Source: Escherichia virus TH44
Sequence record: MT446415.1
Length of the DNA: 64,000 nt
Strand: one strand, 5' to 3'
Position 1 is the stretch's first letter. Each line of letters begins with the position of its first letter. Shown in pieces: positions 57,535 through 63,270 of this stretch. The notes below the pieces were generated by a model. The model was not told the origin of the DNA. It did no database searches and was given only the letters and a program-made list of their open reading frames with translations. The position numbers and the translations under genes were made by a program.

Positions 57535-57810
57535 ATGACTAAATTTGAAATCGTTTCTGAAATTGTTACTGTAACTTCAATTTTGATTAAAACCGACCGG
57601 GAAGATATTACGATGAAGCGTGATGTGTTTATCGCGTTTTTGAATGAGTTGGGATTGAGGAATGAGAATGGTAATGAGTTAAACAATGTATCGTTTAACA
57701 AGTTGTTTAAAAGTTTATCTGAAGATGAAATTGAACAAATCATTGAACAATTTAACGAAGGATTCGAAGATATACACCGTTATCTTATGATGTATACCTC
57801 CGGATTCTAA
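57535..57810 (+). CDS. asiA: anti-sigma70 factor AsiA
   Basis: 91 aa; 'REI.TV.SILIK..REDI......FIAFLNE.G...E...L...SF.K....L...........FNEGFE...RYL.MYT' matches T4 AsiA as recalled. Confidence 0.9.
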   Translation: MTKFEIVSEIVTVTSILIKTDREDITMKRDVFIAFLNELGLRNENGNELNNVSFNKLFKSLSEDEIEQIIEQFNEGFEDIHRYLMMYTSGF

Positions 57811-58460
57811 CGTGTACGCCCGAGCGTACGACCTGCTTGTCCACACATAGCAGAAAGCCTATCAAAACTAAGGTTAGGTTTTTGCTTATACCAGTACAGC
57901 GAAACTGTGCCTGCATAAACGTTTTCCAAATTAAAGAATGGGCAGCTAAACATATATGCGAAGCTGCTTTTTTTCTTTGTTGGTAAGAATACAGATTCCG
58001 TACTGGATTCAAAATAATTACCATTAACCCCCGCCAAATATTCCGCCGAAGTTTTATCTATTGGAAACCCACCTAAATTTTTTTCGTCGACTGTATCAGG
58101 CAATATCCCCTCATATCCCACCATATCCACAAAGTAGTTAAGGTTAGTTGGTCTAAAAGAATATATTGCTGTAAAGTCTGCCCCACTTGACGAGTGGACT
58201 ATCTGGATTTGCTCGATAGCTGCAATTTTAAATCTGTTATCCTGGTCTTGCCTTATCATTTCAGTGTATGAGGCATATGAAGCATCCCTGTACGCATCTA
58301 AAAGTGCATCACCTTTATACCAGATTACCGCCATTAAAAATAATAGAACAATAACTAGTACCCGGGAAAAAACAACTTTCCCGGTCGCATTATCTTTAAA
58401 AATTCTATCAAGAAGTCCAAAAAGTAGGTCGGGTATTGATATTCCTACTTTTGGTTCCAT
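57807..58460 (-). CDS. t: holin T
   Basis: 217 aa; 'DLLFG.LDR.FKDNATGKV', 'Y.G.....Y.......Y.E.I', 'CP.FNL.N.YAGT...YWY' match T4 holin as recalled. Confidence 0.9.
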   Translation of the reverse strand: MEPKVGISIPDLLFGLLDRIFKDNATGKVVFSRVLVIVLLFLMAVIWYKGDALLDAYRDASYASYTEMIRQDQDNRFKIAAIEQIQIVHSSSGADFTAIYSFRPTNLNYFVDMVGYEGILPDTVDEKNLGGFPIDKTSAEYLAGVNGNYFESSTESVFLPTKKKSSFAYMFSCPFFNLENVYAGTVSLYWYKQKPNLSFDRLSAMCGQAGRTLGRTR

Positions 58461-58478
58461 ACTTTTCTCCTTTAAAGA

Positions 58479-58486
58479 TATTTATA
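58479..58486 (-). promoter_or_regulatory. late promoter TATAAATA for t
   Basis: exact TATAAATA on minus strand ~20 nt upstream of the t start. Confidence 0.6.
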
Positions 58487-58497
58487 GCGCTTATGTA

Positions 58498-59280
58498 CTA
58501 TAGCCAAGACCCATAGATAGTGCCTGTGGCGCCCCATGAAGGGGAACTTCCGAATACCGCGCGTCCGGCTCCGCCCTGCGAGCCGTATGTAACGCTTCGT
58601 CCATAAGCGCCTCCACCAGCCCCGCCCGCGTCGCCACCATTACCACCACCCCACTGTCCGCCAAAGCTACCACCGCCACCTGGTCCGGTATAACTAGCGT
58701 TGCCACCTGGGTTTACGGCACCATTAGTACCACCTAATCCATATGGTCTACCGCCACCGCCACCAGCAGTACCAGCTTCAAGCCAAGAGTTATTTGAAGC
58801 ACATCCGGCACCACCGCCGCCACCTGAAGCTATAACACCATAGTTCCAAATACGGAGTCTGCCTCCAATGTCGTTTTGAATTACATCACCACCATTTGTA
58901 TCGGCTATCCAAACACGGGTCCCACCATTACCGCCGCGTCCCCACATATGAACACCACCATGAATATTCAAAGTAACGTATTCATTAGGAGTATCGCCGT
59001 ACATAAAGAACAATGGAACATCTTTAGTATAAGATACTAAATCACCTGTGATATTAAACACAATAGGTGCAGCACCGGCTTCAAAACAACGGTCTCTAAA
59101 CCATTGTCCGTTAAAGTTGTGGTCCGCCCCAAGTGTATGAATTACTTCAACAGACCGACCTATCATATTACTCATCCAAAACGGAATACCCATTCTCAAT
59201 CGTTGGGCCGCGCCGCCCATCCAATTTTGTCCGGTATTAACTGCTGCAGACCATCCTACCCACGGTCCTTCAACTGCCAT
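58498..59280 (-). CDS. 38: T2-type gp38 receptor-binding adhesin with glycine-rich motifs
   Basis: 260 aa from ATG with GGAGG SD; multiple poly-Gly blocks typical of T2/K3-type gp38. Confidence 0.8.
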
Positions 59281-59292
59281 ATAAACCTCCAA

Positions 59293-59306
59293 GGGGCCGA
59301 AGCCCC
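59293..59306 (-). other. hairpin GGGGC-UUCG-GCCCC between 37 stop and 38 SD
   Basis: third identical copy of the 14-nt hairpin. Confidence 0.6.
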
Positions 59307-59311
59307 TCTTA

Positions 59312-62300
59312 TTATTTTAACAATGATTTAATTAATGCTTTAAGTTCTTCAATCTCTGATTTCAATTCTGCTATTTCTGCAGTGTGCTCATTGATTGCAG
59401 CTGTATTTAAACCAATTACACCGTTATAGTTTAAACGAAGTAAAGCTTCACCATCAGGGTCACCTTCAACCAATTCAGGTAAAATAGCTTGAACTTCTTG
59501 AGCAATTAAACCAGCATTGGGTTCCCATTTCTGATTACCTTCTTCATCCAGCCCACGTTTCTGCATATAAGTGTAACCGTTAATTTTAGAAAGCTTCTGA
59601 GAAGCATTTTCAAATTTAACAAGGTCTTTTTTAACACGAATATCAGAACGAACATAAACGTCACGAACAAATGTTGAATAGCTATCGCTCTGTTGGATTA
59701 AATGACCGAAAGAAATAATAGCTCTTCCGGTTTCAGTCCAAAGCGCACCATTTGTACCCCATAACCCAGTATGTTCATGATAAGCAGATGACCATGAAGC
59801 AATATGCATTCCATTTGCAACCATATTGATTCGGCCATCACCACCATGTGATAATCCTGTGTCGTTATCACCAATAGCAATACTAGGAGAGCCTAATCCA
59901 TTAACAGTACCAACACCAATTGCAGGAGTCTGGACTAAAGTCGGGGCATAAAATAAACCACTAGAGTGGAATTCGAAAATACCTACAGGACCATCACCCG
60001 TATCGGCATTACCAACACGAATTATGGCTTGTCCCCATGCTTGAGGAGTACGACGCGTACCTAATTCAACAGAAGTAGTATAACCCTGGCCATTAATTAC
60101 AGATTTGCCTTTAATAATAGGATAATAACAGTCTTCACCTACGCCACCGAAATCAAGGAAATAAGGTGCTTCTTCTCGCCATTGGTCACCCCAGCCACCA
60201 CCGTGACGTGCAATCCAGTTAGCACCGTTCATATGAATACGGTCGCGGTTTATATTGAATATTGAAACACCTTGTGGAGATAAAATAACCTCACCATTCG
60301 GGTTAATATTGATACCGCCTTGGGATTGGAAGCTCCAGAAGGCTAAACCGTTATCAGCGCCGTCATTACCTACATACCAGTTATCAACGCCACCTTTTTT
60401 ACCCTTAACATAACCTGCTTCATCTGCCGGATAATCAATAACCACAGCGTCTGAGTTGGTTTTAAGAGTTAAGCGGCCTGTCATCGTGTCGCCTTCTTTA
60501 GAAACACGAGTAGCAACAGCATCAAGAAGGTTAGTTATATTACCTGCACCATTAAATCCGTTCCAGATATCAGAGAAAATGTTACCATTTCGGGCAATAG
60601 AAGCTTCGCCACCACCAACCACAACGTTATCCGGGAAATGCGGAATGCAGTTACTATCAAATTTAATAATTTTGTTTTCATCACCGGCGGCATTAATTCT
60701 ATGGATTACAAAATCACCAGAATTAAGTTCGGTTCCCATAGACCACATTATACCGCCATTTAAGTATTTCTGTTTTATAATTGGAATATAAGCAGAAGCG
60801 GAATCATTATCAATTTCTTGATAAATAGGTGCCGCTTGTCCGTACTGATTAATATACAGCTCGGTACCATTACCATGGCCTGTGAACTTAATAGAACCAT
60901 TTGCGTTCATATCCAAATTAGTATTATCCATATTAGGAATACTTACTTTACCTGTATCAAGGTCCATACGGAACGGGCGAAGGGGTCCGATATTTCCAGT
61001 TTTACCTTGTCCAAACTCGGTAGGAATAATATGAAGACTGTTTTCTGAGCGACGGAAAATGACACCGTAATCATCGTTCCAAATTCTAAGAGCATTGACA
61101 GCATTACCAGCAATAGTGCCAGAGGCGTTAACTTCTTTACCGACATTTATGCTTTCGTTTACATTCATACCACCATTTAAATGGGCTTCAACGTTATTAT
61201 CAGTCTTACGCTGAATATAATGCATCCAACCAACGTCATCAGATATTTCCATTACGTTTTTGCGGTCACCGGCGACATTAGTAAAGGTGTTACCCCAAAC
61301 GTTAATAGTCATGTTATCAACTGAACTATTTCCTGTAGTATTTCCTCTGAACATCAGAGTAGATGCATTGTTGCGACCGTCAATATTAACCGAACCACCA
61401 GCCACATCTATATTACCGGGGGTAACTAACAGACCACCTGCAGTGTTAACGTTTGTAGTACCCTTACCACGGAAATAGTGATGATAATTACCGCCTTGAT
61501 AATATCCTAAAAGTGTTTGACCGTCACCATATGCGTTATTATCATGGTAAGTAACAACAGTAGCCAATGCATAGTTTTCTGACGGAGGTGTGGTCAAATC
61601 TGTGCCGTTTACGGAGTAGCCCATGACCATTTTTCTAAGACTGGTTGTTTCTGCAGGGCCGGAAAGGAAAGTTCTTGTTCCGTTGTTTACATTAAAGAAA
61701 TATCCGTCTTGGTACCATTGTAAGCCGGTATCATTATCGCCAAGAGCAATTGAAGCCGTTCCTAATTCAGAATATCCTTTAGGGCCGTTCGGAAGACCTA
61801 TAGAAACAGAATGATTGGCTTTCAATCCACCCGACCAAGTAAACGACCAAAGATAAGCGTCTAGGCCATCTCCGGCATACCAGGTTATCCCGTCATTATC
61901 TTTAACTTCGTGGAATATACCTGCTCCTACAGCATTTCGCATAACACGGAGGTGGTTAATAGCTGTTTCACTTTCTGCCAATGGGCTATTATCGGCCATT
62001 GAATAGATATCATAATCGCCAGCCTTCTTCCCGTTTGTAATAACTTTATCGGTCAGAATTTGTGGAGACGAAATAGATTTCCATGCCGATACTTCAGGTG
62101 AAGTGAACAAACCATTACCTGAAAATGCATAAGTGCTTTCACTACCAGCGGCATAATCTTGAACACGGATATTAACTACCTGAGTTGTCAAACCTGCGTT
62201 ATTAGGAGAAAAGATAATGCCACGTTCACGTGATGCACCGTCAAAGAATCTCAAATGAGAAGTTGAAGCACTCTTAGAAATAAGTTCTCCGCCTTCAGTC

Positions 62301-62614
62301 ATTATCTGACCTGCAGCAATAATATCACGAGTTACACGAGCAATACCGGTTAAATTAAAATCACCTGTTTGGGTAAAGGTACCATTTAGGGTGTAATCAC
62401 CGGTCTGGTTGTAATTTCCTTTATGAATAACGTTACCATCAATATTACCGCCTTTAGCAAAGCCAAGGTCGATGATGGCGCCAGTGTCATCTTTAGTAAA
62501 AAGTAAGCGGTCTTTCAGGTTGATAGCCAGTTCACCTTCAGCAAGAACTGTTGGCGCCGGGCGAACGCCGGCAACCTTACTTCTTTTAAATTGTATTTGT
62601 TTTAAAGTAGCCAT
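59312..62614 (-). CDS. 37: long tail fiber distal subunit gp37
   Basis: 1100 aa; N-terminus '[32 protein letters not shown]' matches T4 gp37; C-terminus carries chaperone-like motif. Confidence 0.92.
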
Positions 62615-62622
62615 AATGCCTC

Positions 62623-63270
62623 TTAATAATATCCAAAATCTTGTACGGAGTCTTTAAGAACGATTTGGTCAAAACGGGGCACGTGAGCCGGGTCTGATGC
62701 TGGGTTCCTAGAGAAGAAATTAGGTGCTGACAAGTTACCTGTCATTGTTTGCAATGTACTATTATTTAGTTCTACCTGTTGCTGGTTAGTTACATTACCA
62801 AGACCAACTTGAGCTTTTGATGGAGTATTTCCTGGAGAAAATACACGACCTGTTTCATCATAAATTTGTCGAGCTAACGTATCACCCATAACAGTAAGAC
62901 GTTTTGCTCCTGTTGTAGTGTCAGGGTCAAAAATAACGAATGGTGTTCCCGTTTCAGTCTCAAATCCAAACGGCCCCTTAATACGGAAAGATGCGGTAAA
63001 TGGTGTGCCGCCTGTTCTCGCTCCCAACTTAATCCCGTAACCATTTGAATCATTAAATGTCAGGCCTTGTTCGAAATATACGTTTGCTTTATAATTACCA
63101 CCAAGAGCTTTAGAAACGAAATCGTTATCGACTGCTTGTGGCTTGTTATATTCGGAATAAATTTTATAAGTTTTGAAATATAAGTCATTACTGACTGGTG
63201 TTAATGGGAAATTACCTTGGTGCCAGAGGACCGAACCTCCGGCTGTTGAGCCTAGTTTTAAATCTGCCAT
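62623..63270 (-). CDS. 36: long tail fiber distal connector gp36
   Basis: 215 aa; position between 35 and 37. Confidence 0.85.
   Translation of the reverse strand: MADLKLGSTAGGSVLWHQGNFPLTPVSNDLYFKTYKIYSEYNKPQAVDNDFVSKALGGNYKANVYFEQGLTFNDSNGYGIKLGARTGGTPFTASFRIKGPFGFETETGTPFVIFDPDTTTGAKRLTVMGDTLARQIYDETGRVFSPGNTPSKAQVGLGNVTNQQQVELNNSTLQTMTGNLSAPNFFSRNPASDPAHVPRFDQIVLKDSVQDFGYY

Follow-up and report, generated by a model that had tools for sequence, protein, structure and literature searches.

The long tail fibre of Escherichia virus TH44 appears, with a probability that we put at about 0.9, to end in a distal tip module of the T2/S16 type, in which the distal subunit gp37 carries a self-cleaving chaperone domain and gp38 is the adhesin. 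We analysed a stretch of 64,000 nucleotides from this phage (sequence record MT446415.1), referred to throughout as the window. Within it g37, an open reading frame (ORF) of 1100 aa plus stop at 59312-62614, encodes the precursor of the distal long-tail-fibre subunit gp37, and g38, at 58498-59280 and 260 aa plus stop, encodes the adhesin gp38; these genes and every feature of the locus given below lie on the minus strand. The assignment draws on domain identities, catalytic and docking residues, predicted folds and gene order observed in this DNA, and the expectations of cleavage, of a 3:1 stoichiometry and of receptor binding are carried over from S16 and T2.

In the mechanism that we propose, gp37 would be synthesised as an 1100-aa precursor whose last 111 residues, an intramolecular chaperone of the S74 type, would nucleate trimerisation and folding of the beta-helical fibre. 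The chaperone domain would then cut itself off between Arg989 and Ser990 by means of a Ser990/Lys995 dyad, and its removal would uncover the hydrophobic end of the gp37 trimer. A single gp38 monomer could dock there through Trp7, Trp20 and Trp35 of its N-terminal helical domain. The C-terminal part of gp38 would form a polyglycine-II (PGII) sandwich from glycine-rich motifs (GRM), and its hypervariable loops would bind an outer-membrane receptor and thereby determine host range. Among T-even phages this tip arrangement predominates (PMC3157838, PMC6851490). It is already known, from genetics since 1986-87 and from structure since 2018, and near-identical modules are present in deposited genomes; the biology as such is unchanged by our finding, since the T2-type module has been described before.

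The interval singled out by the original prediction, 58498-59700, comprises the whole of g38, the 31-nt spacer between g37 and g38, the entire chaperone domain (59315-59647) together with the 18 codons that precede it. Both ORFs lie on the minus strand where they had been placed, the quoted gp37 C-terminal peptides were all found, and the prediction built on them is supported with only small corrections.

The C-terminal chaperone domain of gp37

The gp37 C-terminus had been proposed to resemble autoproteolytic chaperones of the peptidase S74 type, and both Pfam and profile searches bear this out. Peptidase_S74 (PF13884) matches gp37 aa 990-1049 at 47.5 bits (E=2.3e-12), where the gathering cut-off is 22 bits, and the match takes in positions 1-57 of the 58 in the profile. 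The scores of this match and of the two gp38 families described below far exceed the Pfam cut-offs and are therefore not due to chance. We assign the intramolecular chaperone domain to aa 990-1100 (59315-59647) on the strength of Pfam, profile and Foldseek matches, which places it at the extreme C-terminus as the final 111 of 1100 residues. Searched against PDB sequences, the last 150 aa of gp37 match the S16 gp37 chain 6F45_A at E=1.4e-37 in an alignment that spans the cleavage site and the chaperone domain, with weaker matches to the MyRF ICA domain and to another tail fibre. With full-length gp37 as the query, the same S16 tip construct aligns to aa 906-1100 (E=1e-45).

When the last 150 aa served as the query of a word-indexed search, only 14 ORFs came back, all of them short or truncated, a set that serves to build a profile and is not a broad survey of homologues. 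Once eight homologues that share 32-93% identity with the query had been aligned with it, Ser990, Asp991 and Lys995 (S40, D41 and K45 of the fragment) proved invariant in 9/9 sequences, as did the G-IAQEV core. The Ser and Lys stand five residues apart (SDIRVK), as does the catalytic pair of S74 domains. Against the PDB, the alignment profile finds S16 gp37 (1e-38), MyRF ICA 7DC3 (2e-9), the tail fibre 8JOV (3e-9) and GA-1 3GUD (0.002). Moreover, the first residue of the released GA-1 chaperone chain 3GUD is the residue aligned to Ser990.

We also modelled the 150-aa fragment with AlphaFold2 (AF2). Its mean predicted local distance difference test score (pLDDT) is 63; the first 50 residues, which belong to the fibre tip, score below 50, and only the chaperone part was used, where ten-residue blocks over fragment aa 51-150 score about 65-91. 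A Foldseek search of the PDB with this part finds MyRF ICA 7DC3 at E=9e-7 and probability 1.0, and all MyRF ICA matches have E<=5e-6; endosialidase chaperone chains are weaker at E 0.05-0.12 (3GW6 about 0.05, probability 0.85), and the rest have E>=0.5. The domain shares with the S74 domains of K1F endosialidase (3GW6), GA-1 (3GUD) and MyRF (7DC3) the Ser/Lys spacing, the AGLIAQEV core, the terminal helix and the site at the very C-terminal end of a trimeric fibre. It differs in that the profile similarity is distant (E=0.002 to 2e-9) and in its passenger, which is a tail-fibre beta-helix here and a sialidase, a neck appendage or a transcription factor there. As to the coiled coil that had been predicted at the very end, AF2 gives a long amphipathic helix at aa 1063-1099 (59318-59428; residues 113-149 of the fragment, pLDDT 83-91). 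The helix itself is thus predicted by the model, and a trimeric coiled coil is probable from a hydrophobic 3-4 spacing that was judged by eye.

The predicted autocleavage site lies between Arg989 and Ser990 (VYVR^SDIRVKK, 59645-59650) and was placed by alignment with the S16 site DLNVS^SDRRIKK. Cleavage at this point would free 111 aa and leave a predicted mature gp37 of 989 aa (aa 1-989, 59648-62614), of which the last ~80 aa would be the distal tip for docking of gp38. The pattern R^SD.R.K is also present in T2, JS98, WG01, EAWsc9, P8 and IME281, and the fragments predicted to be freed are 99-111 aa long. Autocleavage of S16 gp37 at this site removes its last 113 aa and exposes the gp38 docking surface (PMC7917993, citing Dunne 2018). 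The gp37 of T2 and T6 is reported to be proteolytically processed and then capped by gp38 (PMC3157838, citing Drexler 1986).

Alternatively, the S74-like domain could be a degenerate remnant that persists as an uncleaved C-terminal knob, with gp38 bound elsewhere or not at all. Such a reading could appeal to the fact that cleavage is a prediction here and that the P1 residue is Arg instead of the Ser of S16. It is nevertheless highly improbable: Ser990, Asp991 and Lys995 are intact and invariant, the Pfam profile is matched whole, and several isolated, viable phages carry the chaperone domain at 96-99% identity. Moreover, T2 carries R^SDIR.K and its gp37 is reported as processed (PMC3157838). 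An Arg at P1 is no cause for concern, because the processed gp37 of T2 has it and so do JS98, WG01, EAWsc9, P8 and IME281.

The comparison with T2 (Drexler, Riede and Henning 1986-87) extends beyond this motif. There, too, gp37 has R^SDIRLK and an S74-type C-terminus, and a GRM-bearing gp38 is encoded directly downstream. T2 gp37, however, is 1341 aa long, its chaperone domain and tip are only 32% and 25% identical to those of TH44, and its gp38 attachment allele begins MAIVGVPGWIG.

Further upstream, the Pfam family Gp34_trimer, a gp34-like trimerisation domain, is found at gp37 aa 447-548, and gp34 chains of the PDB align to aa 418-560. In a tblastn search with full-length gp37, the best match in the collection is WG01 at 84.8% identity, and 260 phage records cover at least 80% of the protein.

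The gp38 adhesin

The gene g38 is where it had been predicted, although translation most likely starts from the ATG at 59280 (MAVEGPW...) and not at 59292, where the ORF as such (58498-59292) begins. This choice rests on three observations: Gp38_N matches only from ORF residue 5 onwards, all homologues start with MAV, and GGAGG stands just upstream. Within gp38, the Pfam family GP38 (PF05268) is matched over all of its positions (1-218/218) at 267.7 bits (E=1.2e-79), and Gp38_N (PF21721) likewise (1-40/40) at 71.8 bits (E=4.7e-20). Among PDB sequences, gp38 matches PP01 gp38 (9V85, E=1e-74) and, end to end, S16 gp38 (6F45_D, E=4.8e-49). The AF2 model of gp38 (pLDDT 83.8) superimposes on 9V85 with a target-normalised TM-score of 0.93 and an rmsd of 1.4 A over 217 columns at 65% identity; Foldseek finds 6F45_D at E=6.6e-20, and besides these two chains nothing at E<1. 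The model thus predicts a three-domain fold with a PGII sandwich.

The N-terminal attachment domain, defined by Gp38_N (aa 1-40, 59161-59280), contains Trp7, Trp20 and Trp35. An alignment of 44 adhesins shows no exception at W7 and a conservation of at least 90% at W20 and W35; the query has all three. In the S16 structure the gp37 trimer offers three equivalent pockets, which these three tryptophans of gp38 fill, and the tip comprises one gp38 per gp37 trimer, with a PGII sandwich and loops formed by hypervariable segments (HVS) (PMC6851490). A conserved beta-helix core follows at aa 41-113 (58942-59160), with strands of pLDDT >90. The specificity domain (aa 114-238, 58567-58941) consists of GRM alternating with HVS. 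That poly-glycine motifs are separated by variable segments had been predicted, and a conservation map over 89 adhesins confirms it, with conserved glycine-rich motifs interleaved with HVS1 (58765-58809), HVS2 (58684-58728), HVS3 (58645-58668) and HVS4 (58576-58614). There are 17 runs of at least two glycines in gp38, and glycine makes up 36.6% of aa 116-260 vs 13% of aa 1-115. The glycine-rich sequence of gp38 also accounts for a local G+C content of 55% at 58500-58999, compared with about 40% around it.

Compared with the S16 (gp37)3-gp38 tip (PDB 6F45; Dunne et al. 2018), the TH44 module shares the tryptophans, the GRM/HVS layout and the gene order. In contrast, gp38 is only ~46% identical, the S16 fragment has 113 aa and that of TH44 111, the HVS are unrelated, and S16 binds Salmonella OmpC. 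The receptor-binding domain of PP01 gp38 (9V85; an OmpC binder, PMC12892980) is the best structural match and has the same type of attachment domain, as judged from wV7, which we took as the stand-in for the PP01 type. Its HVS differ, however, and at 12-47% identity to the wV7 stand-in its OmpC specificity is not transferable.

The opposite division of labour, as in T4, would make gp38 an assembly chaperone that stays outside the virion and put the receptor-binding site on gp37. We consider this the least probable of the readings weighed here. GenBank homologues in JS98, JS10, IME281, UPEC01 and others are indeed labelled 'distal long tail fiber assembly catalyst', and porin-predictive k-mers have been reported in gp37 of Straboviridae (bioRxiv 10.64898/2026.04.02.716166). 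However, gp38 belongs to PF05268 and PF21721 and resembles, in sequence and in model alike, the adhesins that PP01 and S16 carry on their virions, the docking tryptophans are kept, gp37 is without a T4-like tip, and the label is borrowed from T4 gp38, which is unrelated in sequence (PMC6851490). In the Pfam scan of gp38 at E<=0.01 we found adhesin families only and no T4-type assembly-protein family. Full-length gp37 retrieves five chains from the PDB sequences at E<=0.01, namely S16 gp37 and four gp34 chains, with no T4 gp37 tip among them. The claim that gp37 does not end in the His-box C-terminus of T4 likewise stands as far as sequence can tell, as there is a single HxH motif in gp37 (HEH at 946). 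On the single HxH, the lack of a T4 tip chain among the five PDB chains and the adhesin-only gp38 families, we reject a T4-type tip with a gp37 adhesin and a gp38 chaperone. T4 does share with TH44 the position of the locus, the proximal and middle fibre parts and the gp34-like trimerisation domain; it differs, according to the literature, in that the receptor-binding tip of T4 is part of gp37 itself, while its gp38 is a chaperone of no relation (PMC3157838, PMC6851490).

Records of homologues (JS98, IME281, vB_YenM_P8) carry the labels 'distal long tail fiber assembly catalyst', 'long tail fiber assembly chaperone' and 'tail protein and peptidase'. For these adhesin homologues such labels are widespread mislabels, of which the first two derive from the unrelated T4 gp38. 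The annotation value of the present analysis is that gp38 should be named an adhesin, not an 'assembly catalyst' or a 'peptidase', and that the end of mature gp37 is predicted at residue 989. Two further database entries may be noted. The gp38 of vB_EcoM_RZ is 97-98% identical to the query up to about aa 210, beyond which its sequence is unrelated and ends differently, apparently through a frameshift in the record. A 303-aa database protein from a 25.7-kb E. coli assembly contig has Peptidase_S74, Gp38_N and GP38 in one ORF, and may be either a real fusion or a gene call that starts late in g37 and runs on into g38.

Specificity loops and the receptor

Having been predicted as an adhesin of the T2/K3/Ox2 type, gp38 is of the T2/S16 type by Pfam, PDB sequences and model, but its loops are of the JS98 type and are not T2, K3 or Ox2 alleles. 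The four HVS are 85-100% identical to those of JS98, and HVS1 and HVS3 are identical to them. We found the full-length specificity domain in 8/50,697 phage records, which represent six phages (MN01, EAWsc9, vB_YenM_P8, TH40, JS98 and PhAPEC2), and it is 89.5-99.3% identical to that of JS98, vB_EcoM_PhAPEC2, MN01, EAWsc9 and vB_YenM_P8. In the Yersinia phage vB_YenM_P8 it is 98.7% identical to the query, and across the whole of gp38 the identity to MN01, EAWsc9 and P8 is 96.5-96.9%.

A comparison of the variable segments with adhesins of known receptor had been suggested as a check. It revealed the JS98 type, with no typed allele above 60%. The typed adhesins compared were T2, T6, M1, wV7, S16, IME281 and AlbertHofmann, with receptors as given in PMC6499177, PMC8594841, PMC3157838 and PMC12892980. 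HVS identity is 15-60% to IME281 and AlbertHofmann (OmpF), 20-35% to T2 (FadL), 0-25% to T6 (Tsx), 13-23% to M1 (OmpA), 12-47% to wV7 (OmpC, PP01 type) and 0-20% to S16 (OmpC). Because HVS identity to typed adhesins is only 0-60%, the receptor is not transferable by homology. OmpF is bound by the nearest characterised alleles, those of IME281 and AlbertHofmann, but they are not similar enough for a call; even the best match, IME281, reaches only 15-60% per segment, and we claim no receptor by loop similarity. A literature search for the receptor of the six phages with the full-length specificity domain, JS98, PhAPEC2 and P8 included, found none.

By a weak prior, for which the near-identical specificity domain of the Yersinia phage is the clue, the receptor is most likely an outer-membrane protein, probably a porin, that E. 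coli has in common with Yersinia enterocolitica. The primary receptor could instead be lipopolysaccharide (LPS), another glycan, or a protein beyond Tsx, OmpA, OmpC, OmpF, FadL and OmpW, which we regard as unlikely. The HVS are at most 60% identical to any typed adhesin compared, the loop set occurs at full length in eight phage records with no receptor found in the literature, and relatives that bear gp38 and use LPS are on record (PMC10194368, PMC3157838). On the other hand, large screens place gp38 adhesins with a few porins (PMC8594841; bioRxiv 10.64898/2026.04.02.716166), and the nearest alleles, IME281 and AlbertHofmann, use OmpF (PMC6499177, PMC8594841). It is known that gp38 swaps change the receptor (bioRxiv 10.64898/2026.04.02.716166). 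A more specific proposal, which we hold to be quite unlikely, is that JS98-type loops bind a receptor outside Tsx, OmpA, OmpC, OmpF, FadL and OmpW, or a variant of a loop that E. coli and Yersinia have in common. If true, this would be a new specificity class in the gp38 'code'; the receptor of the JS98-type loop set would also be useful for receptor-prediction models.

No observation contradicts the assignment of the locus to a T2/S16-type tip module, but several points limit it. The AF2 chaperone model is a monomer of a domain that acts as a trimer, and its confidence is moderate. The P1 residue is Arg where S16 has Ser, although T2, which is known as processed, has Arg too (YIR^SDIRLK). For this phage we infer cleavage, docking and receptor binding by homology. 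Lastly, the 0-60% identity of the HVS to receptor-typed adhesins makes the receptor part of the assignment weak.

Module exchange and genome setting

Modular shuffling at the tail-fibre locus has been described before (PMC3157838). We followed it here by sliding nucleotide identity in segments of 150 nt across 57800-62700 against five genomes. In t and the 3' half of g38, DNA identity to EAWsc9, P8 and JS98 is 90-100%. The 5' end of g38 and the chaperone part of g37 are 91-100% identical to EAWsc9 and WG01 up to 59599, whereas JS98 is at 53-77% there. Identity to EAWsc9 drops to 81% in 59600-59749, and over the interval 58498-59700 this deposited phage is 81-100% identical. From 59900 the best match of the g37 shaft is mostly WG01 (80-94%), with P8 similar (83-92%) in 59900-60499 only. 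The gene diverges most in a part of the shaft at 60650-60950 (gp37 aa ~555-655), where DNA identity to none of the five genomes exceeds 64%.

At the protein level, the attachment domain is 84-89% identical to IME281 and wV7 (wV7 89%) vs 53% to JS98, and is thus an allele of the IME281/PP01 type. The gp37 tip and the chaperone domain of JS98 are likewise distant, at 38% and 61% identity. By contrast, the gp38 core at aa 46-113 is 87-99% identical to six of the eight references (JS98, IME281, AlbertHofmann, T6, M1 and wV7) and 34-38% identical to the other two, T2 and S16. One crossover lies inside this conserved core, between the attachment and specificity modules. Since JS98 shares the specificity domain but differs in the attachment domain, tip and chaperone, the window is a recombinant of two module types. 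On sequence comparison, the locus joins a gp37 tip and gp38 attachment domain like those of IME281 and WG01 to a JS98-like specificity domain. For engineering, this locates the start of the exchangeable specificity module.

Moreover, in seven phages the type of the gp37 tip (the last ~80 aa of mature gp37) covaries with the type of the gp38 N-terminus (the first ~45 aa). The query-type tip goes with 'MAVEGPWVG...', and the JS98/T2 tip with 'MAVVGIPGWIG...'. This co-inheritance fits a docking interface of gp37 and gp38.

The tail-fibre genes occupy the last 6 kb of the window on the minus strand in the canonical order g36-g37-g38-t, and the same layout is found in T2, JS98, WG01, EAWsc9, P8 and IME281. 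The ORF at 62623-63270 is g36, the small distal connector of the long tail fibre; it has no Pfam match, and gp36 is annotated at the homologous position in JS98, WG01 and IME281. Directly downstream of g38 is t, the T holin (57807-58460; Pfam Phage_holin_T, E=1.2e-66). Past the tail-fibre genes the plus strand carries asiA and early genes. Within 1-52000, nearly all ORFs of at least 150 aa are on the plus strand. Scans of the entire 64 kb for tRNA genes and for Rfam families (at the gathering score) returned no gene and no family. The backbone DNA is ~94-95% identical to the Escherichia phages MN01 and EAWsc9 (Gaprivervirus) and to the Yersinia phage vB_YenM_P8, and the tail-fibre region resembles Dhakavirus phages such as WG01, JS10 and JS98. 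The genome that hosts the locus is that of a Gaprivervirus/Dhakavirus-like T-even phage.

Two of the spacers contain candidate regulatory elements. In the g38-t spacer (58461-58497) we find TATAAATA at 58479-58486, some 20 nt before the start codon of t. We take this to be the T4 late-promoter consensus, and its position would suggest that the holin gene t has its own late promoter. The g37-g38 spacer (59281-59311) contains a GC-rich UUCG-tetraloop hairpin at 59291-59308, with a 7-bp stem and a minimum free energy of -13.0 kcal/mol, which fills nearly all of the 31 nt and lies directly 5' of the g38 Shine-Dalgarno sequence GGAGG (59286-59290). It is similar to the stable C(UUCG)G hairpins familiar from intercistronic regions of T4, and may act as an mRNA stabiliser, as an attenuator or in translational coupling. 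Its stem is retained via compensatory base changes in IME281, AlbertHofmann, T2 and JS98.

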